Shown here: in pieces, positions 737 through 52,559 of the stretch
Layout of the letters: each line of letters begins with the position of its first letter
Position numbering within the stretch: position 1 is the stretch's first letter
Source of the DNA: Methylacidiphilum caldifontis
GTDB lineage: Bacteria; Verrucomicrobiota; Verrucomicrobiia; Methylacidiphilales; CAMAQI01
Assembly (NCBI GenBank): GCA_945877805.1
Contig: CAMCSM010000004.1
Span: forward strand, 1,582-65,581
DNA length: 64,000 nucleotides
Direction: 5' to 3'
The notes under the pieces: model-generated
Databases searched by the model: none
The model's input: only the letters and a program-made list of their open reading frames with translations
What the model was told of the DNA's origin: nothing
Position numbers and translations under genes: made by a program

Positions 737-1450
737 ATGACAATTGAGAGTCGATATCGAGAGATTCAAGGGAGGATTCAGCGCTCTTGCGAGAAAAGTA
801 GGCGAGGAATTGAAGAGGTTTTGTTGATTGGGGTCACGAAGACTCATCCCCCAGAAACAGTAGAGGAGGGGCTTCGTTTAGGTATTTTGCATCTGGGTGA
901 AAACAAGGTTCAAGAGGCTCTTGCTAAAAAAAATGTGGTAGGAGAAAAAGGGATTTGGCATTTGATCGGGCATTTACAGGGGAATAAAGTAAAAAATGCG
1001 GTTCAAATTTTCGATCAGATCGATTCAGTGGATACATTGGCTCTCGCTCAGGAGATATCAAAACGTTGTGAGATGATCGGGAAAAGAATGACTGTTTTAA
1101 TGGAGGTCAACGTTTCTGGGGAGGGGAGTAAATTTGGGGTTAAACCGGAGCAGGCGGCACGATTAGCGGAGGAAATCAACCGATTGCCCGCTCTTGAATT
1201 GAGGGGATTGATGACGATGGCCCCCTTGATGGAGGATTCGACGAAGAGCCGTCCTTATTTTGCACAATTAAGAGAATTGAGGGATCGGATTCAGCAAGAG
1301 ACGGGGCTTCATCTCCCAGAGCTTTCGATGGGGATGAGTCAAGATTTTGAGGTCGCGATTGAAGAGGGGAGCACGATGATTCGTCTCGGAACGGTTTTAT
1401 TTGGAACAAGGCCGAAGCCGACAAGGGAGTTCTTCGAGGATTCGATTTAA
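737..1450 (+). CDS. yggS: YggS-family pyridoxal-phosphate homeostasis protein
   Basis: 237 aa. GVTKTHP, HLIGHLQGNKVK and MGMSQDFEVAIEEGSTMIRLGTVLFG match the YggS/PROSC alanine-racemase-fold family. Confidence 0.85.
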   Translation: MTIESRYREIQGRIQRSCEKSRRGIEEVLLIGVTKTHPPETVEEGLRLGILHLGENKVQEALAKKNVVGEKGIWHLIGHLQGNKVKNAVQIFDQIDSVDTLALAQEISKRCEMIGKRMTVLMEVNVSGEGSKFGVKPEQAARLAEEINRLPALELRGLMTMAPLMEDSTKSRPYFAQLRELRDRIQQETGLHLPELSMGMSQDFEVAIEEGSTMIRLGTVLFGTRPKPTREFFEDSI

Positions 1451-1533
1451 CCGCCAAGTTAAATTCAACCCCGACAAAGAGTACGGGGTAGGAATTCGCC
1501 AAGATTATAAGATTTTATTTAAACCGCTTATTT
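1449..1533. repeat. Intergenic repeat modules: ccgccaagtt word, ccccg/cgggg hairpin, tttaaaccgcttat word
   Basis: aaccgccaagttaaattcaa + ccccgacaaagagtacgggg + aggaattcgccaaga...tttaaaccgcttat. Related copies lie at 37396-37452, 51490-51525 (opposite strand) and 54203-54282. Confidence 0.75.
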
Positions 1534-1622
1534 TCCTTTTCTCCTTTTGGCGCTCTTTGCCTTTACCTTGGCGGTTAATCCCATTTCTTAGATGGTTTGT
1601 CTGGAACAACCGAGGGCTGTGA

Positions 1623-2570
1623 CTAGACCTTCGGAGGGGTCATCGTCAGCCAGCCGCTTTTGAAGTAATCTTCAATCCCTTTTTCTAAGGTATATTGCGG
1701 TTCCGTCTTGAGCTCTTTTTTGGTGGCGCTCAGATCGGCTTCCGTGTGGGGCTGGTAAAAGGGGTAGGGATTATCAAAGTAATCGGGAGTGATTTTTAAT
1801 TTCAAGACCTTATTGAGCGTTTCGATGATATCGTTAAAAGAACGAGGCTTTCCTGATCCGGCGTTGAAGACCCCAGATTTTTTCGCTTTCGTGAAACCGG
1901 CGATGGTGAATTCAACGATATCTTTCACATAAATGAAATCCCGTTTTTGTTCGCCATGCTTAAAGACTCTCGGGCGTTTCCCTGCGAGCATTTGATGGGC
2001 CAGCTGGTAGGTCATGCTCGCTGCCGATTTTTTATGGGTTTCGCGTGGTCCGTAGACATTAAAATAGCGAAGTCCGACAACCTTCTGGCGAGGGTATTCC
2101 CTGAGAAATTGAGCGGCTAGGTTTTCAAGCTGAACCTTAGAGAATCCATAGACATTGGCCGGCTTACGAGGATCGGAGAGACGATTGATTCCAGCCGCGA
2201 TCCCGTAGGTGGCAGCAGAAGAGGCATAAACGAGGGAGCTCTTCTTGCCGGCAATGAATTTGAGGATATTTCGTAGACTCTCGACATTATCGTAGGTCTG
2301 TTTGAACTGATCGTGTTCGGTGGTGTCGGTGATCGAACTTAAATGAAAAATCGCTTCAAAAGTGGTTTTCCCAAAAAGTTGTGAGAGGCAGATCTTTGAA
2401 AGATCATAGGAGAGGAAATCTCCTTTGAATCCTTCGAGATTACGAAAGTGTCCTGAGCGAAAATCATCAATGACGATCAGGTCGTGGGTCGGAAAACGTT
2501 CTTGTAATGTAAGGGCAAGGTTAGAACCAACAAAACCTGCTCCACCAGTGACGAGGATCTTTTTTGACAT
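1623..2570 (-). CDS. hldD: ADP-L-glycero-D-manno-heptose 6-epimerase
   Basis: N-terminal VTGGAGFVGSN Rossmann motif, then ASSAATYG and RYFNVYGPRE.HK...S, as in E. coli HldD/RfaD. 315 aa. Confidence 0.8.
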   Translation of the reverse strand: MSKKILVTGGAGFVGSNLALTLQERFPTHDLIVIDDFRSGHFRNLEGFKGDFLSYDLSKICLSQLFGKTTFEAIFHLSSITDTTEHDQFKQTYDNVESLRNILKFIAGKKSSLVYASSAATYGIAAGINRLSDPRKPANVYGFSKVQLENLAAQFLREYPRQKVVGLRYFNVYGPRETHKKSAASMTYQLAHQMLAGKRPRVFKHGEQKRDFIYVKDIVEFTIAGFTKAKKSGVFNAGSGKPRSFNDIIETLNKVLKLKITPDYFDNPYPFYQPHTEADLSATKKELKTEPQYTLEKGIEDYFKSGWLTMTPPKV

Positions 2571-39690: not shown

Positions 39691-39886
39691 GGTCTCTATT
39701 CTTCCAAACCTCCGAGGAAGAGACAAGCGTTAAGTAAAGGGGAAGGAGACCCGTGTGTCGGACTAAAAAGTTAGGTAATTAACGCGACGTCCTGATTTGT
39801 CCAACGCCTAGGTTGAGTTGTTCTCTGGTATTGAAGGATTTTACGCAAGAATGGATCGTTATTTGAGGGATTAATTTTAGAGGAGA

Positions 39887-46341: not shown

Positions 46342-47505
46342 ATGAATTCGGAATGGAAACCCCCTGAAATCCCTAAGAACGAATCAAGCTCCTCTTCCTC
46401 TGGAACTCCTGATGGTCGAGCCGTTCAACCCCCTCACGGCCTCAGCTCCTATTTGAATCCGACGATTGCCTTGATCGTCGGTGTCGCTTTGATTGTGATG
46501 ACGGTTCTTTATTTTTTTATCAACCAAGATCATTCCGGAAAAACGAGCGATTGGGCTCGTCATGGAAAGGCAAATGTCATCGCCTCCCTTGAGGAGCCAT
46601 TGCCTTGGTGGAGCTCTTTTGGGAAACCGGATGCAGCAAAGATTAAGAAATTAGTCGAAAAAAATGGGATCAAGGTTCGTAAGTTGATCGCAGTTGGAAA
46701 AGAAAAGAGTGAAGAGGGGGTTCTCTGGACTTACCAGATTCAAATTCGGGTCAATCAAACCTTGATCCAACCGCAAATGGAGCCGTTCGATACTCAAAGC
46801 GATCTGAAGTTTATCTCCTCGCAGTTAAAGTTGAATGAGAAATTGCCAACGGGGATGGTTTTTACCAGTCAGCCCAAATCCTCGATGCCCAAGGATGAGA
46901 TTGTCATCATGGAGTATAAAATTTTAGTTTCAGAAGAGGAGACCTTGATTTCGGAAAATCCATTTGATCTTTTTCTCACTCAAGAGGAGTGGAAAAGTGG
47001 GATGGAGCGTCAAAGTCAACGGATCACTTCTCTCAACGCGCAAGCCGAACTTATTAAACTCGATGCCAAAAAATGGGGAGAGGCTGAGCTTGCGAAAGTT
47101 CCCTATCCTTCAAAGCCAAATATGTCGGCAGAAAAATGGCGTGGAAATGCTGGAACCGGAGAGCCAACGAAATCGGTGACACGCGTTGGAAGCGGCGCCG
47201 CATTAGGGGCAGGGATCGGAGCACTCGCGGGAAAGACTGAGGGGGGGCTTATTGGAGCCTTAGCAGGAGCCGTAGCGGGAGGGGTTTATGATGCGGTTTC
47301 GAAGTCGACCGATCGTAAAAAGTTTGAAGCAGAGGAGAAATCGAGAGTTTCGGCAAATCGTCGCGAATATGAAAATGAGGTTTCTCTTTATAACCGTCGG
47401 AAAAAAGAGGTCGAGACAGCAACCGCTGAATACTATCGAACAAAATTACTCCAGCTTGTTCAAACCCCTCTTTCTGATTCTGCCGTAGAATTTCCCTTAA
47501 AGTAG
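46342..47505 (+). CDS. Hypothetical bitopic membrane protein with a glycine-zipper segment
   Basis: Ser-rich N-terminus, TM helix (IALIVGVALIVMTVLYFFI), a domain of about 200 aa, then GSGAALGAGIGALAGKTEGGLIGALAGAVAGGVYD (glycine-zipper-like) and a charged tail. Confidence 0.6.
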   Translation: MNSEWKPPEIPKNESSSSSSGTPDGRAVQPPHGLSSYLNPTIALIVGVALIVMTVLYFFINQDHSGKTSDWARHGKANVIASLEEPLPWWSSFGKPDAAKIKKLVEKNGIKVRKLIAVGKEKSEEGVLWTYQIQIRVNQTLIQPQMEPFDTQSDLKFISSQLKLNEKLPTGMVFTSQPKSSMPKDEIVIMEYKILVSEEETLISENPFDLFLTQEEWKSGMERQSQRITSLNAQAELIKLDAKKWGEAELAKVPYPSKPNMSAEKWRGNAGTGEPTKSVTRVGSGAALGAGIGALAGKTEGGLIGALAGAVAGGVYDAVSKSTDRKKFEAEEKSRVSANRREYENEVSLYNRRKKEVETATAEYYRTKLLQLVQTPLSDSAVEFPLK

Positions 47506-47515
47506 ATTCCGTTCT

Positions 47516-48586
47516 ATGACCGAAAAATACGACGTTATTGTGGTAGGGGCTGGCCCTGCGGGATCGATGGCGTCGTTGATTCTGGCGCGTGCAGGAAAAA
47601 AAGTGCTCCTTCTCGATAAAGCCAGTTTTCCTCGTCATAAAGTTTGCGGAGACTGCTTAAATCCGAGAATTTGGGCTCTCTGGAAGAAATACGGTTTAGT
47701 CGATTCCTTTAAAACCCTCCCTCAAACGGCCCTTGAGGGGCTGCGAATTGAGCACGATCAAGAGACGCTGCTTCGCCGTAATTTTGAGAGCCTCAAAGAA
47801 TCGTACATCTCGATCGATCGCGAGATCTTTGATGCTTGGCTCGTACAAGAGGCGATTAAATCGGGAGTCGTATTCATTCATGAGACCCGTGTTCAGACCG
47901 TTCACTTCTCCGGAAAAGTCGAGACCTCAGCCGGAGATTTTCAAGGGGATTGGATTTTAGGGGCTGATGGACGTAATTCAGTGGTCTCCCGTAATGCAGG
48001 ATTGATGGCTCCCCTTCAAAACTGCTGTCGTGTTGGATGGCAAGCCCATCTGGAACTTGAAAATTTAGATTCCGATCTTCATCTCCGATTTTTTAGTGAG
48101 GGCTATAGTGGGTTGAGTCGGATTCATGATCAAAAAGCAAATCTTTGGATGGTTCTCGATTCCAAGGTCTCTGGAATTCCTCAAAAAATTGCGAACCGCT
48201 ACTTTCCGAATCTTCCGGCTCTTGTTTGGCATAGTATCACCCCTGTTACTCGAAAGCCCTCAGTCTTGGGGAAGGGAAAGATCTGGTTGATTGGTGATGC
48301 GGCACGGGTTGTCGAACCGTTTACGGGAGAGGGGGTTTACTTCGCTCTGCTCAGTGCTGAATTGGCGGTTAAATCGATTTTAAATGTAAAGCGAGCCGAA
48401 GAGGTCTCTGGGGCTCTTTTGAACTACCAGAGAGAGCACGAGCTCCTCTGTCACTCCCAAATTCGCCCGGGGTTCATCCTTCGCTGGCTTCTCCGAAGCC
48501 CCGAAAGAGCCTATCGTTGGATCCCATTGCTTCGCTATTTTCCAGGGCCCGTCAGTCGAATCATCAATCGACTCATTGGAATTTAA
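47516..48586 (+). CDS. FAD-dependent oxidoreductase (geranylgeranyl-reductase-like family)
   Basis: YDVIVVGAGPAGSMASLILARAGKKVLLLDK dinucleotide-binding motif, HKVCGDCL, and a GDAARVVEPFTGEG C-terminal FAD motif. Confidence 0.8.
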   Translation: MTEKYDVIVVGAGPAGSMASLILARAGKKVLLLDKASFPRHKVCGDCLNPRIWALWKKYGLVDSFKTLPQTALEGLRIEHDQETLLRRNFESLKESYISIDREIFDAWLVQEAIKSGVVFIHETRVQTVHFSGKVETSAGDFQGDWILGADGRNSVVSRNAGLMAPLQNCCRVGWQAHLELENLDSDLHLRFFSEGYSGLSRIHDQKANLWMVLDSKVSGIPQKIANRYFPNLPALVWHSITPVTRKPSVLGKGKIWLIGDAARVVEPFTGEGVYFALLSAELAVKSILNVKRAEEVSGALLNYQREHELLCHSQIRPGFILRWLLRSPERAYRWIPLLRYFPGPVSRIINRLIGI

Positions 48587-48732
48587 TCACTTATTCTCGC
48601 TCCTCTCGGAAGCCGGGATAGCTGAATAGCTTGATAGCGAGTAAGCCGGATAGCTTAAATCCATTTAAAATGCAGGGGAAATTCTAATCCGCAGATGACG
48701 CAGATTTTCCTGCATTCCTTAAAGAAAAATGT

Positions 48733-48831
48733 CTTTTCCTTTGTGACTTCGTGTCTTCGTGTGAGACGGGTATTCAATGTCTTCAATCAGTGTAAATTAG
48801 CGAAAATTAGCGGTTCAAATTCTTTGCCTTT
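48733..48831 (+). repeat. Module B, 99 bp
   Basis: cttttcctttgtgacttcgtgtcttcgtgtgagacgggtattcaatgtcttcaatcagtgtaaattagcgaaaattagcggttcaaattctttgccttt. It is 92/99 identical to 54450-54548. The first half is shared with 37808-37857. Confidence 0.88.
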
Positions 48832-48838
48832 TTCTCTT

Positions 48839-50122
48839 TTAGAATAGCGAATTCATGAAATTAAAGAGGGGATTTCGAATGCTATTCCAAACATTGTGGG
48901 CATAAGGGAGGATCGCAATCGCAATCCCTGTCATCAGAACATTCGCCAGAGCCACGGGAAGAAAGACCTTCCAGCCGATATTCATCAATTGATCGTAACG
49001 AAAACGGGGAACCGTCCAACGAATCCAGATAAAGAAGAAAAGGAAGGCAAAAAGTTTCGCAAGAAAGACTCCCACTTGAACCGGGATGAACCACCACGGA
49101 TGATTCTGACCAGCGAACCAATCGACCAAGAGGCTAAACCAAGCGGGGGTTTCGAGTTGACAAAAGCTTAAGAAATTTTGAATAAATCCAAGCGGAAGAC
49201 TCCATCCTCCGAAGAAAAGGGTGACCATCACTCCCGAGGTGACGATCATCGCTGCATACTCCCCAAGGAAGAATAAGGCAAATTTCATCGAGGAGTATTC
49301 GGTATGATAACCCCCAATCAGCTCCGTTTCGCTCTCAGGAAGATCAAAGGGGGCGCGATTCGTTTCGGCAAAGGAGGAGATCAAAAAGATCACGAAGGAG
49401 AGAAGCATGAAGGGGAGAAGAAAGAAACTATCGAAGCACCAATTCGCAGACATGAACGGGAAAACGATCCATCCATGCAGAATCTGCTGCGTAATGATTT
49501 GGGAGAAATTTAAGGTCCCGAGAACCATGAAAAGAGGAATAATGGAGAGCCCCATCGAGATTTCGTAGGAGATCATTTGCGCACTAGAGCGGATCCCTCC
49601 GAGGAACGGATACTTGGAGTTTGAGGACCATCCAGCTAAAACGATTCCGTAAACCGAGAGCGAGGCAAAGGCGAAAACGAAAAGGACACCGATATCGATA
49701 TCGGCAATCACCCCGGGGGAGGGGATCGTCAGATTCAAGAACGGAATATAAATATCCTGAATACTCGCGAAGGGAATTACCGCGAGGGTGATCAAAGCGG
49801 GGCAAACGGCAAGGGCCGGAGCAATCGTAAAGTAGAGTTTGTTGACGTGACCAGGAGTAAACTCCTCCTTGAAGATGAACTTGGCGCTATCACAAATCGG
49901 CTGAAGCAGTCCAAAAGGGCCGACCCGGTTCGGCCCGACTCGATCTTGGATGAGTGCGCTCACCCGTCTTTCCGCCATTACGGTATAAGAGACAATTCCC
50001 AGAACAACCCCGATGACGGCAGCGGTTTTGAGAATCGAACTCACGACGAAAATCGTCGGATCAAATTGAGCGAGTAAACCGATAAATGAGAAAAGGCCTA
50101 GGTCCATACAAGAGACATTCAA
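48839..50122 (-). CDS. nuoH: NADH-quinone oxidoreductase subunit H (ND1 homologue)
   Basis: AERRVSALIQDRVGPNRVGPFGLLQPICDSAKFIFKEEF and ETNRAPFDLPESETELIGGYHTEYS are NuoH signatures. TTG start at 50122 (AAGGGGG upstream), or ATG at 50107. Confidence 0.88.
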   Translation of the reverse strand: MNVSCMDLGLFSFIGLLAQFDPTIFVVSSILKTAAVIGVVLGIVSYTVMAERRVSALIQDRVGPNRVGPFGLLQPICDSAKFIFKEEFTPGHVNKLYFTIAPALAVCPALITLAVIPFASIQDIYIPFLNLTIPSPGVIADIDIGVLFVFAFASLSVYGIVLAGWSSNSKYPFLGGIRSSAQMISYEISMGLSIIPLFMVLGTLNFSQIITQQILHGWIVFPFMSANWCFDSFFLLPFMLLSFVIFLISSFAETNRAPFDLPESETELIGGYHTEYSSMKFALFFLGEYAAMIVTSGVMVTLFFGGWSLPLGFIQNFLSFCQLETPAWFSLLVDWFAGQNHPWWFIPVQVGVFLAKLFAFLFFFIWIRWTVPRFRYDQLMNIGWKVFLPVALANVLMTGIAIAILPYAHNVWNSIRNPLFNFMNSLF

Positions 50123-50200
50123 AAGAACCCCCTTGAAAAAACAACATAAAAACTAAAAAAGATTTACGAGGAGGATTCCTTTGCTAGACCCTCCTTTGTT

Positions 50201-50617
50201 GTGAAGTCTCGTTCTTTTCATTTTGGAGTGGTGATTAGTGAATATCACCGTGAATATACCGAACCGATGTTAGATTCGGTTCAGGAGGTCCTCTCTGCCT
50301 ACGATCTCACTGTGGTTTGGGTTCCCGGGGCTTTCGAAATCCCTTTACAAGTCCAGCGACTAGCCGAATCCGGGCATTACGACGCCGTGATCGCCTTAGG
50401 ATTGATCTGGCAAGGGGCAACGCTTCATAATACCGAGATTTTAAGAGCCGTGACCGATTCGTTGATGCGGATTGGCTTAGATTGTGATCTTCCCGTGATT
50501 CACGAGGTGCTTTCCGTGAAAACAGCCAAACAGGCTCGTGAGCGGTGCCAAGGAAAAATGAATCGAGGCCGCGAAGCGGCTTTAGCCGCCCTTTCAGTGG
50601 CCCGATTGAAAGGGTAA
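50201..50617 (+). CDS. ribH: 6,7-dimethyl-8-ribityllumazine synthase
   Basis: FGVVISEYHREYTEPML, VPGAFEIPL and ALGLIWQGAT.HNTEI fit RibH. GTG start. Confidence 0.8.
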   Translation: MKSRSFHFGVVISEYHREYTEPMLDSVQEVLSAYDLTVVWVPGAFEIPLQVQRLAESGHYDAVIALGLIWQGATLHNTEILRAVTDSLMRIGLDCDLPVIHEVLSVKTAKQARERCQGKMNRGREAALAALSVARLKG

Positions 50618-50629
50618 TGAGGGAATTTT

Positions 50630-51064
50630 ATGGGAATGCGTCGCGATGCTCGAGAGAAGGTAGTTCAATTTCTGTATTATAAGGAGTCAGTTCCGAGTTA
50701 TACCTTGGAGGCTGCTTTGAACTTTTTTTGGCAATCCCAAGAGGTACGTCAGGATGTCTTTAAATTTGCCTCACGTCTGATTCAAGGAGTCTTGGAAAAA
50801 CAAAAAGAGATCGATCTTAAAATCGAACCGATCTCCAAGCATTGGGACTTTGATCGTATCGCTCCGATTGATCGCAATATCCTACGCCTAGCCTTCTATG
50901 AAATGCTCTTTTGCGACGATATCCCCCCTGTGGTGACCATCAATGAGGCGATCGAAATTGCGAAGAAATTCAGCACCGAAGAATCGGGAAAATTTGTCAA
51001 TGGATTCCTCGATGTTCTCCGCAAAGACCTCCCTCGTCCTGCCCGCCAATCGGCAGGCAAGTAA
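50630..51064 (+). CDS. nusB: Transcription antitermination factor NusB
   Basis: RRDAREKVVQFLY, DRIAPIDRNILRLAFYEM, PPVVTINEAIEIAKKF and KFVNGFLD. The ribH-nusB pairing is conserved. Confidence 0.88.
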   Translation: MGMRRDAREKVVQFLYYKESVPSYTLEAALNFFWQSQEVRQDVFKFASRLIQGVLEKQKEIDLKIEPISKHWDFDRIAPIDRNILRLAFYEMLFCDDIPPVVTINEAIEIAKKFSTEESGKFVNGFLDVLRKDLPRPARQSAGK

Positions 51065-51103
51065 GAGATCGGGAGTAAAGAGGAATCAATTTAAAGGCAT
51101 TTT

Positions 51104-51366
51104 TCTCACACGAAGCCGCTAAGGACACGAAGTGGAAAATTGCAACGACACACTGAGGTGATTCACTCTGTTTCCTCCTGCGTCGGAAAACACCTTCTGA
51201 GAATCTCTCCCGTTTCTTTGAAAAAAGGATTTTCAAAAACGATCGATCTTCTCCTCAGGGGCTCGGCTTCGCCTCTCCTGGAATCAACCTCGGGGTCTCC
51301 TTGTCTAATTCATAAAAAAAGGGGAAGGAGGTATTTAACTTCGTGTCGTTGTGCCTTCGCGTGAGA
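51104..51366. repeat. Inverted pair of B-type words flanking about 200 bp
   Basis: tctcacacgaagccgctaaggacacgaagt (51104-51133) against acttcgtgtcgttgtgccttcgcgtgaga (51338-51366). About 22/30 positions are complementary. Confidence 0.6.
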
Positions 51367-51489
51367 TAATGTTTTTAGGATACTGTTTGTTAAGTTGACG
51401 CCTATGCGCACCAGCGGAAGAAGAGGTTGCATCCCCGAAAAAGGATCAGTGCAGATCAGTGAAGATAAGCGGTTAAAAATGACTCTAAA

Positions 51490-51545
51490 AACTTGGCGAA
51501 TTTTGAATTTAACTTGGCGGTTAAGCCTCTCTTTCTCTGCGTCTG
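51490..51545 (+). repeat. Modules A' and D (truncated)
   Basis: aacttggcgaattttgaatttaacttggcggttaag is 33/36 identical to 37721-37756. It is followed by cctctctttctctgcgtctg. Confidence 0.85.
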
Positions 51546-51579
51546 AAATACCTTCTCTTGACGAATCTAGTTTTAAATT

Positions 51580-51641
51580 TGCTCTCGGAGTGACTCGAAC
51601 ACTCGACCCACCCCGAAAGAATTCGGGGTTGCTCTTTCCTA
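51580..51641 (-). pseudogene. tRNA-Arg-derived 3' fragment (part of the D arm, an altered anticodon arm, T arm, acceptor 3' strand)
   Basis: 51581-51610 is identical (30/30) to 51914-51943 of the intact tRNA. Similarity resumes at agagcaac on the far side of a replaced anticodon arm (accccgaattctttcggggt, 20 nt instead of 17). There is no 5' acceptor strand or D-stem 5' half. Confidence 0.75.
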
Positions 51642-51943
51642 ATCTTTCTTTTCCAGATAATATTGAATCAACTTGGGATTCTTTTTTGCTTTTAAATATC
51701 GCTCTAAATCTCTCGCTTCTTTAAGGTTTTTACATTCACGAGTAACAACCACAGACAATGGCCGTCCAATCCGTTTACTACTTGGACACGATCCATGTTG
51801 GTGATGGTCGAGACGACGTTGAAAATTATCAGTCGATCCTAAATAGTGTCGCCCTGTTGTCCCTTGAAGTAAATAAACGCAAATCACCTCAATCCTTTTC
51901 TTTTTTAAAATCTGCTCTCGGAGTGACTCGAACACTCGACCCA
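51581..51943 (-). mobile_element. Candidate GIY-YIG cassette bounded by 30-bp direct repeats derived from the tRNA 3' end
   Basis: The direct repeats gctctcggagtgactcgaacactcgaccca at 51581-51610 and 51914-51943 bracket the GIY-YIG ORF. No integrase or transposase is present. Confidence 0.4.
51639..51887 (-). CDS. GIY-YIG nuclease-superfamily small protein
   Basis: (V)ICVYLLQGTTGRHYLGSTDNFQRRLDHHQHG... is the GIY-YIG/URI core pattern. I chose the GTG at 51887 because AAGGA lies 5 nt upstream. The track's longer frame (to 51944) would begin inside the tRNA. Confidence 0.75.
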   Translation of the reverse strand: MICVYLLQGTTGRHYLGSTDNFQRRLDHHQHGSCPSSKRIGRPLSVVVTRECKNLKEARDLERYLKAKKNPKLIQYYLEKKD

Positions 51944-51986
51944 CGGATTAGAAATCCGTTGCTCTATCCAGCTGAGCTACGAGAGC
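51913..51986 (-). tRNA. tRNA-Arg (anticodon UCU)
   Basis: Manual cloverleaf: GCTCTCG-TA-GCTC-AGCTGGATA-GAGC-A-ACGGA-TTTCTAA-TCCGT-GGGTC-GAGTG-TTCGAGT-CACTC-CGAGAGC-A. All four stems are fully paired and CCA is not encoded. Confidence 0.93.
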
Positions 51987-52161: not shown

Positions 52162-52386
52162 TTAGGCATGAACTGCCTCAAAACGAGTGATAAAGACTTC
52201 TCCGTGGAGTCTTTGTTTAATCTCCTCCTTCGAGGCACATTCCAAAAAGAGTTCGACCGCTTCTTTTAAATTAGCGAGCGATTCCTCGACGCTTTCCCCC
52301 TGACTCGCCACGTCGAGCTCAGGACAAAGGGAGACATAGCCGTTATCCTCTTTTTCCAAAATGGCAGTGAATTGTGATTTGCTCAT
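52162..52386 (-). CDS. HicB-like antitoxin-fold protein (UPF0150-type)
   Basis: MSKSQFTAILEKEDNGYVSLCPELDVASQGESVEESLANLKEAVELFLE matches the HicB N-terminal domain pattern. No DNA-binding C-terminal domain and no adjacent hicA. Confidence 0.65.
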   Translation of the reverse strand: MSKSQFTAILEKEDNGYVSLCPELDVASQGESVEESLANLKEAVELFLECASKEEIKQRLHGEVFITRFEAVHA

Positions 52387-52559
52387 ATCTGATTTTGATC
52401 CTTCAAGTAGCATAAGTCACCTCTAAAAATATTCAATTGATTTATGATCCTCCTGCGGACTAATCATTCGAACTCATTAGCTCTCAATTAAGTAAGGTGC
52501 GCAAGTTGCTTTTGTCGGTCTCGCCATTGTCCACGGGGCATGGTGGAATTATTCAACGA

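Follow-up and report, generated by a model that had tools for sequence, protein, structure and literature searches.

Integrase-mediated integration at a tRNA gene classically leaves the 3' end of that gene directly repeated on both sides of the insert. In fungal mitochondria, a mobile endonuclease ORF reportedly inserts at the 3' end of a gene, as in Allomyces atp6, and brings a replacement copy of that end, the displaced end becoming a downstream fragment. The structure-specific nuclease Slx1 cleaves branched DNA and DNA stem-loops, and for the UPF0213 proteins we know of no described link to tRNA-flanked cassettes. In the tRNA gene cluster of phage T4, SegB is a free-standing GIY-YIG homing endonuclease, and its target is a 27-bp site containing a TpsiC stem-loop motif (PMC2330249). 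Here we describe a GIY-YIG gene beside a tRNA-Arg gene that represents the minimal form of a previously undescribed family of cassettes widespread in Verrucomicrobiota; Rfam and the searchable literature yielded no description of the cassette.

ARAGORN found one tRNA gene in the window (the whole 64-kb stretch of DNA analysed), a tRNA-Arg(tct) on the minus strand at 51913-51986. This functional tRNA-Arg(UCU) is 74 nt long without an encoded CCA and also matched Rfam RF00005 (69.7 bits, E 1.5e-14); a simple scan showed no sigma-70 promoter upstream of it. On the same strand it is followed by a spacer of 25 nt (51888-51912), in which an SD-like AAGGA lies 5 nt upstream of a GTG start codon, and then by a stand-alone GIY-YIG gene of 82 aa with a TAG stop codon (51639-51887). 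The initial annotation had described this order of an intact tRNA-Arg(UCU) and a GIY-YIG ORF on the minus strand, and ARAGORN, Rfam and Pfam bore it out.

Downstream of the gene lies a fragment of the same tRNA. Its first part is a remnant of the D loop and the 3' strand of the D stem (GGAAAGAGCAA, approximately tRNA positions 18-27; 51629-51639, minus strand), which shares the last base of the ORF's stop codon, contains AGAGCAA at 51635-51629 and matches the tRNA's GGATAGAGCAAC at 11 of 12 positions. Next comes a hairpin, CCCCGAA-TTCT-TTCGGGG (CCCCGAATTCTTTCGGGG, 51611-51628), replacing tRNA positions 28-42; with A27 and T43 retained beside it, the stem reaches 8 bp. The pattern scan detected this hairpin once in the window against 0.06 occurrences expected by chance. 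The last part is a copy of tRNA-Arg positions 43-73, comprising the variable loop, T arm, acceptor 3' strand and discriminator (51580-51610, minus strand; 31/31 identical to 51913-51943). It is followed by a trailer (51544-51579, minus strand), delimited by blastn against a metagenomic contig described below, and the first 14 nt of this trailer repeat, in diverged form, the trailer of the tRNA, that is, the first 14 nt of the spacer (gattttaaaaaaga). The repeat search gave a direct repeat of 46 nt with 91% identity (51566-51611 versus 51899-51944) and a 31-nt exact core. The exact repeat noted earlier (51581-51610 and 51914-51943) falls within it and extends by one base to the discriminator A (51580 and 51913), then imperfectly for 14 nt into the trailer; the similarity that had been seen to continue into the 3' flank and the D arm corresponds to this trailer match and to the AGAGCAA remnant.

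The fragment had neither a paired acceptor stem nor a cloverleaf with an anticodon loop; Rfam gave no match to it at E≤10 and ARAGORN made no call. The initial annotation was also right that it lacks the acceptor 5' strand: a second acceptor 5' strand with D arm was absent from the window at up to 3 mismatches, and the ORF sequence held no complement to the acceptor 3' strand. We rejected a split or permuted tRNA because searches of the window at up to 3 mismatches and of the ORF sequence gave no hidden acceptor 5' strand. RNA folding of the region yielded local hairpins only (z = -2.5). We also considered whether a hicA remnant flanks the module in duplicate, and rejected this because the similarity of 52143-52100 to 51573-51530 was weak and had no Pfam support. 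The ENA copy of the window's contig stops inside the GIY-YIG ORF.

Analysis of the ORF upheld its assignment to the GIY-YIG nucleases, with a match to Pfam PF01541 (E 2.5e-11, 44.2 bits, cutoff 22.6). The catalytic residues Y5, Y15, G17, R25, H29, E62 and N70 were all present (alignment A1); Y5, Y15, G17, R25 and H29 were invariant in this alignment, E62 and K69 were at least 90% conserved, and N70 lay within KKNP. The AlphaFold model (pLDDT 93.7) contained three strands plus helices, and the top Foldseek matches to it were all GIY-YIG domains, the nearest solved relatives being UPF0213, Slx1 and UvrC-N. The exact protein had no match on record. Its homologues were 75-90 aa long after translated tRNA artefacts had been removed, and a median dN/dS of 0.12 indicated purifying selection on the ORF. 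To judge from its sequence, the window ORF is a real, intact GIY-YIG gene.

In profile comparisons the protein matched UPF0213 (E 5e-12 and 1e-8), Slx1 (1.8e-4) and I-TevI (0.14); TIGR01453 scored 18.4 bits, below its cutoff of 56. No C-terminal DNA-binding domain of the I-TevI/Seg type was found in the 82 aa, nor a C-terminal zinc finger of the Slx1 type, as the protein ends at residue 82. Profiles and predicted fold place it with the UPF0213/Slx1 nucleases and not with the I-TevI-type homing enzymes. The initial annotation had proposed a homing-type nuclease; because the protein is short, carries no DNA-binding domain and stands nearer to UPF0213/Slx1, the term "homing endonuclease" expresses an analogy here and not membership.

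We fetched 74 loci (72 from genomes and 2 from metagenomes), nearly all of them from Verrucomicrobiota. In 56 of the 74, a tRNA ended 5-25 nt before the ORF. The partner is Arg-UCU in the window and Met-CAU, Lys-UUU or Lys-CUU elsewhere, and all of these tRNAs decode ANN codons. The cassette measures about 330 bp and was found with the same hairpin and ORF in more than 60 species. The stop codon in homologues was usually the TAG of TAGAGCAG, and the gene ended inside a partial copy of the same tRNA (positions ~13-76), so that direct repeats of about 45 nt delimit the unit, each containing the variable loop, the T arm and the acceptor 3' strand, followed by 8-14 nt of trailer. Over the equivalent 29 nt at 50 other loci, identity between the fragment and the local tRNA averaged 96.4% and was complete at 32 of the 50. 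The tRNA of the fragment's own locus was its best match in 47 of 49 cases, the tRNAs of other loci being only 86-87% identical. Tandem and decayed units were present at L006, L021, L022, L025 and L032; at least 10 ORFs were frameshifted or truncated, and the one at L092 had no start codon. Several genomes carried two loci at different tRNAs (L013/L069, L037/L061 and L034/L064). One cassette, L051, lay in a MAG labelled Chthoniobacter flavus. Among 152 family representatives, at least 14 had N- or C-terminal "extensions" that were translated tRNA or hairpin DNA.

No integrase was found in or near the cassettes inspected, and the GIY-YIG gene was the sole ORF between the repeats, in agreement with the initial annotation. 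A degraded integrase-mediated island would leave the tRNA 3' end directly repeated around an insert, with the tRNA as attL, the 3'-end repeat as attR and the cargo deleted down to one ORF. We consider this origin very improbable, since independent decay is not expected to produce an identical 330-bp unit with hairpin and ORF in more than 60 species, and since a repeat that starts within the D arm and includes a hairpin foreign to tRNAs does not resemble att sites. A phage origin was also rejected: a motif scan of viral contigs returned 0 matches, and the PHROG and PADLOC searches gave insignificant matches.

The hairpin had the conserved form CCCCGAA-N4-TTCGGGG in place of tRNA positions 28-42. 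The same stem occurred in 106 instances at 61 loci; after the ORF it was exact at about 45 loci and present as variants at further ones. Its loop was variable, most often AGCT, and tolerated inserts of 27 nt, while the stem was invariant apart from compensatory variants; three stem pairs showed compensatory changes. These changes argue that the hairpin is under structural constraint. Rfam searches with the hairpin units gave sub-threshold YrlA noise alone. The initial annotation had read the stem-loop as a replaced anticodon arm that still contained TTCT. The hairpin does stand in place of the arm, but TTCT is no relic of the anticodon, as the loop varies in homologues, and a conserved, element-specific hairpin at at least 61 loci and four tRNA types contradicts a local remodelling.

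ORF-less units, consisting of the acceptor 5' strand, D arm and hairpin, often lay upstream of the tRNA. They were present in about 24 of 56 scored loci (~40%) and absent from the window and about 29 loci. These arrays of 1-6 hairpin units lie downstream of a promoter and upstream of the gene, and are thus probably transcribed; the promoter, TTGACA-17-TTCAAT, was conserved upstream of the first unit, and there was no space for a separate ORF promoter. Extra hairpins occurred at ectopic "CAG" sites in L036 and inside the T arm in L020. Inversion of the tRNA module through the palindromic hairpins was rejected, because inverted loci had no upstream hairpin and the inversion was also found in empty alleles.

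Such arrays raise the possibility of a module that works at the RNA level. The nuclease would then act on tRNA or pre-tRNA, for example in the anticodon loop or in processing of ANN-decoding tRNAs, and the pseudo-tRNA pieces, carrying a tetraloop hairpin that it could not cleave, would mimic its substrate and bind or titrate the enzyme, as in a type III toxin-antitoxin system or an autoregulatory loop. The exact exchange of positions 28-42 with the 27-43 pair kept makes structural sense as a replacement of the anticodon arm and would suit this explanation, as would the restriction of partners to ANN decoders (CAU, UUU, CUU and UCU), the probable transcription of the 1-6-unit arrays, the compensatory stem changes, and the strong purifying selection on the ORF together with its long-term residence. 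We nevertheless regard it as unlikely. Neither type of unit folds into the shape of a tRNA, the 3' units lacking the acceptor 5' strand and the 5' units the T arm and acceptor 3' strand, and the ORF offers the unpaired acceptor 3' strand no complement. That this strand tracks the local tRNA exactly is better explained at the DNA level, the upstream array is missing from the window and the other loci noted above, and the empty and filled alleles and the copy in another context, both described below, would be left unexplained. To our knowledge, no RNA-cleaving GIY-YIG enzyme has been characterised. A connection with tRNA does exist among related proteins, in that GIY-YIG domains of the bacterial Slx1 cluster have been found fused to a TrmH-like tRNA methyltransferase (PMC1564403), a point in favour of the RNA-level explanation.

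Presence and absence of the cassette were polymorphic at the tRNA-Met locus of relatives. The empty loci L086 and L087 (16 contigs in all) contained the promoter and a plain tRNA-Met, and shared flanking genes with the filled loci L084, L092 and L096. When empty and filled alleles were compared by blastn, the left flank, promoter, acceptor 5' strand and D arm ran into the first hairpin unit, and the variable loop, T arm, acceptor 3' strand and right flank resumed at the last fragment. The ORF and fragment behave as an insertion/deletion unit beside the tRNA gene. This is the integration with a duplicated tRNA 3' end that the initial annotation had offered as one option, and the empty sites it had proposed to look for in relatives exist; they hold a single tRNA, which disfavours its other option, in which one member of a tandem pair of tRNA genes was invaded. 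At the window locus, relatives anchored by NusB (92%, 83% and 76% identity) lost synteny exactly at the nusB stop codon, which makes the region next to nusB variable, in line with the integration hotspot that had been suspected; they supplied no empty site for the tRNA-Arg locus. A metagenome scan with a 30-mer of the tRNA-Arg 3' part recovered one contig only, L083, which was not an empty site. Positions 405-724 of L083 were 98.4% identical to window positions 51544-51863 over 320 nt (blastn), with similarity ending at 51544; its cassette had unrelated flanks and was cut by an IS.

The cassette at the tRNA-Met locus was syntenic in at least 36 species-level genomes. Mean identity there was 72% for the ORF, 79% for DapL and 61.5% for unk231, values by which the ORF is as conserved as the neighbouring host genes. 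An old arrangement, syntenic in dozens of Chthoniobacterales species and with its ORF under purifying selection, does not look like the outcome of a recent invasion; pairwise identities gave a mixed result on horizontal versus vertical history. An ancient, universal and syntenic arrangement without empty sites had been named in advance as the observation that would speak against insertion. The arrangement did prove old and syntenic across dozens of species, yet empty sites exist.

Synteny of this kind, host-like conservation of the ORF, the dN/dS value and the sharing of the tRNA promoter are what would be expected of a resident accessory gene, a repair-type or structure-specific nuclease fixed downstream of a tRNA. 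The tRNA copy and hairpin would in that case form only the 3' end of its mRNA (a stabiliser, terminator or processing signal), gene conversion would keep the repeats alike, and the empty sites would have arisen by simple loss. The strong GC stem, which in the window scores terminator-like on the opposite strand, could serve such a role, although no T run follows the hairpin in the sense direction. More difficult to reconcile with a resident gene are the recurrence of one architecture at four different tRNAs with a locally matched fragment each time, the 98%-identical cassette in an unrelated context and the occurrence of two loci per genome. Tandem units, many decayed copies and the extra hairpins of L036 and L020 point to an active duplicative process. 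On balance, a resident gene seems to us a rather poor prospect.

The reading that we favour, with a confidence that goes about halfway, is a selfish insertion/deletion cassette that rides tRNA genes by means of tRNA-derived repeats and leaves the tRNA intact. It would persist and spread by homologous recombination on its tRNA-derived arms, either by being copied into an empty tRNA locus in a homing-like manner or as a small circle that integrates and excises through the 31-45-nt repeat. The ORF would be expressed from the tRNA promoter as a 3' trailer of the pre-tRNA, and the nuclease would make the initiating break or nick. The hairpin may be the structure recognised by a small, domain-less, Slx1-like nuclease, and the cutting of stem-loop DNA by Slx1 would suit such recognition; or it may be a substitution through which the duplicated copy no longer contains the target, the anticodon arm. 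We propose that the repeats recombine with each other and that this accounts for the tandem ORF-fragment units, for the precise loss that leaves empty sites, and for a fragment that co-evolves with the tRNA of its locus.

Several observations weigh against a selfish cassette. The tRNA beside the cassette and the tRNA in empty alleles have the same anticodon arm; a nuclease aimed at this arm would therefore cut at its own locus too, which leaves classical donor immunity unexplained. Long syntenic residence fits vertical inheritance or a host-useful function equally well, simple integration after a tRNA does not predict units of the 5' type, and the protein's grouping with UPF0213/Slx1, without a DNA-binding domain, also speaks against this reading.

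A bolder proposal, which we put forward tentatively and think rather less than probable, is a new minimal class of element in which a nuclease of about 80 aa of the Slx1/UPF0213 type and an 18-bp palindromic hairpin take the place of integrase and att, or in which transcribed hairpin pseudo-tRNA mimics control a tRNA-directed nuclease. If the former is true, the element enters, duplicates around and leaves ANN-decoding tRNA genes with one tRNA copy always intact. Either version would provide the first biological context for the large, uncharacterised UPF0213 family, and would suggest the hairpin, tRNA-gene DNA or tRNA-like RNA as a substrate for stand-alone UPF0213/Slx1-type proteins. If self-propagating, the cassette would be among the smallest known elements with a protein gene (~330 bp) and would represent a new integrase-free parasitism of tRNA genes through tRNA homology arms and a hairpin. 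In practical terms, cassette loci break assemblies and mislead gene callers.

Compared with known systems, the cassette resembles integrase islands and tycheposon-like elements in its position on the 3' side of a tRNA, in its bounds of repeated tRNA 3' part and in the intact tRNA. It differs from them in having no tyrosine or serine recombinase, in its size of only about 330 bp, and in a repeat that reaches the D arm and is interrupted by the hairpin. Type III toxin-antitoxin systems (ToxIN-like) share with about 40% of the loci a series of short, structured tandem repeats that precedes a small nuclease gene within the same transcription unit. In the cassette, however, the array is optional and its repeats are tRNA-derived, the window having no upstream unit at all; the nuclease has a GIY-YIG fold and is not a ToxN/Abi-type RNase, and a functional tRNA, not a terminator, stands between array and gene.

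SegB and the cassette both place a GIY-YIG gene among tRNA genes and vary in presence between relatives, and the transfer of SegB together with flanking tRNA DNA is a further likeness. SegB, however, is a long, two-domain protein of the I-TevI/Seg clade, whereas the protein here has 82 aa and a catalytic domain only; SegB loci have neither the partial tRNA duplication nor the hairpin, both of which the cassette has, and the host is a phage in the one case and a bacterial chromosome in the other. The mobile ORFs of fungal mitochondria share with the cassette a free-standing endonuclease ORF between an intact target and a duplicated 3' piece, with the host gene functional. The cassette differs in its target, a bacterial tRNA gene, in the conserved foreign hairpin within the duplicated piece, and in an ORF that is not fused to the upstream gene. 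For the protein itself, the UPF0213/bacterial Slx1 cluster (BH0048, 1zg2; EF2693, 1ywl; and eukaryotic Slx1) provided the best sequence and fold matches. Eukaryotic Slx1 has a C-terminal zinc finger and the partner Slx4, both absent from the protein here, whereas the bacterial members are, like it, single-domain proteins, of about 80-100 aa.

The tRNA gene, GIY-YIG ORF and tRNA-derived 3' fragment described in the initial annotation are all present on the minus strand of the window. ARAGORN called a tRNA-Arg(tct) at 51913-51986, the sole tRNA in the window, which scored 69.7 bits with the Rfam tRNA model. After a spacer of 25 nt, with AAGGA ahead of a GTG start codon, lies an ORF of 82 aa (51887-51639) that ends in TAG and whose proposed GIY-YIG identity was borne out by the Pfam profile (E = 2.5e-11). 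The TAG overlaps GGAAAGAGCAA, which agrees at 11 of 12 positions with the tRNA's D loop and D stem 3' strand. Right after this D-arm remnant, a pattern search of the window located the hairpin CCCCGAA-TTCT-TTCGGGG (51628-51611; one match against 0.06 expected), and the 31 nt 3' of it exactly matched positions 43-73 of the tRNA. The initial 14 nt of the tRNA trailer then recur in diverged form, and the repeat in full (tRNA 3' part and trailer) measures 46 nt at 91% identity. Neither ARAGORN nor Rfam called a tRNA in the fragment; the whole window holds no acceptor 5' strand for it and no hairpin units of the type found upstream of the tRNA at other loci.

Three further observations concern the surroundings. 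On the plus strand (51610-51629), the hairpin and the TGCTCTTTCC that follows it score as intrinsic-terminator-like and face the convergent nusB transcription unit. In a second, independent assembly of this organism, the contig that matches window 46630-51720 (a contig end of ENA ERZ27280245) stops within the GIY-YIG ORF; the probable reason is that short-read assembly broke at the tRNA repeat. The 83-aa ORF upstream of the tRNA (52162-52413, minus strand) had been regarded as an orphan hicB-like gene; only sub-threshold matches to HicB-like/UPF0150 antitoxins were obtained (E 4e-4 to 0.01), and no HicA partner was detectable.

A word-index search returned only two homologues of the ORF, at 53% identity, with the same anatomy around a different tRNA. 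The order in locus L001 is tRNA-Met(CAU), 10 nt, ORF, TAGAGCAG, CCCCGAAagccTTCGGGG and the tRNA-Met 3' part. Exhaustive HMMER searching gave 484 relatives, mostly of 75-135 aa, and a genome scan yielded 72 loci, nearly all in Verrucomicrobiota MAGs (Chthoniobacterales/Udaeobacter, Pedosphaera and Opitutae). A tRNA ended 5-25 nt ahead of the start codon in 56 of 74 loci, and a decayed unit lay between tRNA and ORF in 11 others. The partner was tRNA-Met(CAU) in the majority, Lys(UUU), Lys(CUU) once, and Arg(UCU) in the window; every tRNA found adjoining the cassette was an ANN decoder. The tRNA-ORF-fragment arrangement is a family trait and no accident of the window locus. The partner called tRNA-Met may be Ile2(CAU): it has G1-C72, its A31 and G39 are mismatched, and its likeness to tRNA-Ile2(CAU) is as close as that to elongator Met. 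One locus (L032, 2920-3438) is rearranged into a decayed hairpin pseudo-tRNA, ORF, full tRNA-Lys(UUU), 34 nt and hairpin fragment; here the ORF precedes the functional tRNA, and no D-arm TAG is fused to it.

The hairpin replaces exactly tRNA positions 28-42, and the flanking positions 27 and 43 keep the local bases (A..T in the window and G..T at other loci). Across 61 loci there were 106 instances of the stem CCCCGAA/TTCGGGG, whose loop varied; the commonest loop, AGCT, creates a perfect 18-bp palindrome and was found in 33 of the 57 units downstream of ORFs. Compensatory variants included CCCCGAC/GTCGGGG in the Opitutae clade, CCCCGAT/ATCGGGG, CTCCGAA/TTCGGAG and CCCCGC/GCGGGG, and RNAalifold identified three stem pairs changed on both sides. 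The loops tolerate 27-nt inserts (L002 and L036), and base pairing between GAGCAG of the D-arm remnant and TTGGTC of the variable loop would extend the hairpin to ~12 bp. The hairpin was restricted to cassette modules, had no Rfam family and gave 0 matches in the viral contigs scanned. Ectopic copies were observed after each "CAG" of a pseudo-tRNA in L036 (2690-2800; acceptor position 5, D loop and position 27) and, as the variant CTCCGAATGCTTTCGGAG, within the T arm of a fragment in L020 (1895-1925). The hairpin seems able to spread within a locus.

Identity of the 29 nt after the hairpin to the local tRNA averaged 96.4% and was complete in 32 of 50 loci. The best-matching tRNA was that of the same locus in 47 of 49 cases, whereas identity to the tRNAs of other loci was 86-87%; therefore, the fragment co-evolves with the neighbouring tRNA. 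In ~24 of 56 scorable loci, the functional tRNA was also preceded by one to six ORF-less units in tandem (period, ~89 nt), each comprising acceptor 5' strand, D arm, hairpin, variable loop and a T arm that breaks off or degenerates at differing points. Because the first unit immediately follows a conserved TTGACA-17-TTCAAT promoter, these units are probably transcribed ahead of the tRNA.

The full set of GIY-YIG catalytic residues is conserved in the ORF product, and its AlphaFold model is confident (pLDDT 93.7). The nearest solved relatives by profile E value were the UPF0213 proteins BH0048 (5e-12) and EF2693 (1e-8), followed by weaker matches to Slx1 (1.8e-4), the UvrC N-terminal domain (1.7e-3) and, at only 0.14, I-TevI; no DNA-binding domain was found in the product. 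Among tRNA-Met-type loci, the median dN/dS was 0.12 and the mean ORF identity was 72%, between those of two neighbours, DapL (79%) and an unknown protein (61.5%). ORF clusters follow largely tRNA type and taxon, and at least 10 copies were frameshifted, truncated or without a start codon. Many apparent N- or C-terminal extensions of relatives are translated tRNA or hairpin DNA (e.g., "..RAAPKAFGVGREFDSP.."), with translated hairpin in at least 14 of 152 family representatives; database entries with spurious extensions include P0009, P0011, P0012, P0015, P0018, P0019, P0021, P0025, P0027, P0028 and P0034, among others. The cassette-encoded nuclease is under selection and apparently active.

One tRNA-Met locus was represented by 36 loci with common flanking genes: dapL, a sigma-like gene and a 231-255-aa unknown gene on one side, and MaoC and an AMP-binding gene on the other. 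By DapL-anchored look-ups, empty alleles were found here: L086 (and 4 similar contigs) and L087 (and 10) carry the promoter and a plain tRNA-Met with neither ORF nor hairpin, and L084, L092 and L096 are filled. On the left, the flank, promoter, acceptor 5' strand and D arm of the empty allele were colinear with the first hairpin unit; on the right, the variable loop, T arm, acceptor 3' strand and flank were colinear with the last fragment. By this colinearity, the filled allele is formally a resident tRNA interrupted at the anticodon arm, and the insert has a hairpin at both ends and carries an intact tRNA copy and the ORF. From this allele, recombination between the acceptor 5' strand and D arm repeats can generate the minimal form that the window has. 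It is equally describable as insertion after the tRNA with a ~45-nt duplication.

The ~170-bp promoter and tRNA-Met segment lies in opposite orientations in L086 (6649-6816) and L087 (6649-6828). Their flanks are 99.7% and 98% identical and their DapL proteins identical, and on sequence they look like two alleles within one species; the promoter spacers have diverged and the first codons of the adjacent MaoC differ. Each of the two orientations is also found in many species, whether the cassette is present or not (26 loci in group A, 10 in group B).

A marine contig, L083, carries a second copy of the window's cassette (98.4% identity over 320 nt to 51544-51863) between unrelated flanks, and the nusB-side synteny of the window with relatives ends at the nusB stop codon. 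In L083, an IS end replaces the first ~8 ORF codons including the GIY motif (827-2305, minus strand, and 724-766); the IS encodes a 492-aa transposase-like protein. A stretch of 41 nt in the otherwise unrelated flank (266-306) is 90% identical to window 39832-39872 and is possibly a dispersed repeat of the lineage.

The cassette is a distinct unit that recurs, has direct repeats at its boundaries and is inserted or deleted at tRNA genes with the tRNA preserved; tandem amplification, decay and loss can all occur. We infer a selfish cassette that would move or persist via homologous recombination through its tRNA-derived arms, at a break made by the nuclease; the hairpin may be the structure that the nuclease recognizes, or may stand in for the target and so remove it from the duplicated arm. 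This model is weakest on donor immunity, which it leaves unexplained: the anticodon arm of the functional tRNA next to the cassette is the same as in the empty alleles. Long syntenic residence and purifying selection fit a host-useful or RNA-level role equally well. In the latter, the hairpin units would be tRNA mimics for a tRNA-directed nuclease. This is favoured by the exact structural substitution of the anticodon arm, the restriction of partners to ANN decoders and a report that bacterial Slx1-type domains occur fused to a tRNA methyltransferase (PMC1564403); against it, a tRNA-like fold is impossible for either unit type, and we consider this role unlikely.

Full-text literature searches returned no description of the tRNA-ORF-hairpin-fragment arrangement. 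The closest known system is SegB of phage T4, a GIY-YIG homing endonuclease encoded by a free-standing gene within a tRNA cluster, with a site that includes the T-arm motif (PMC2330249). The two differ in the clade and domain build of the protein, in the host, and in the anatomy of repeat and hairpin. Integrase-type tRNA islands have a similar direct repeat, but the cassette lacks a recombinase. The cassette would belong among selfish nuclease cassettes at tRNA genes, with a real chance that its hairpin and minimal-nuclease logic represent a new mechanism.
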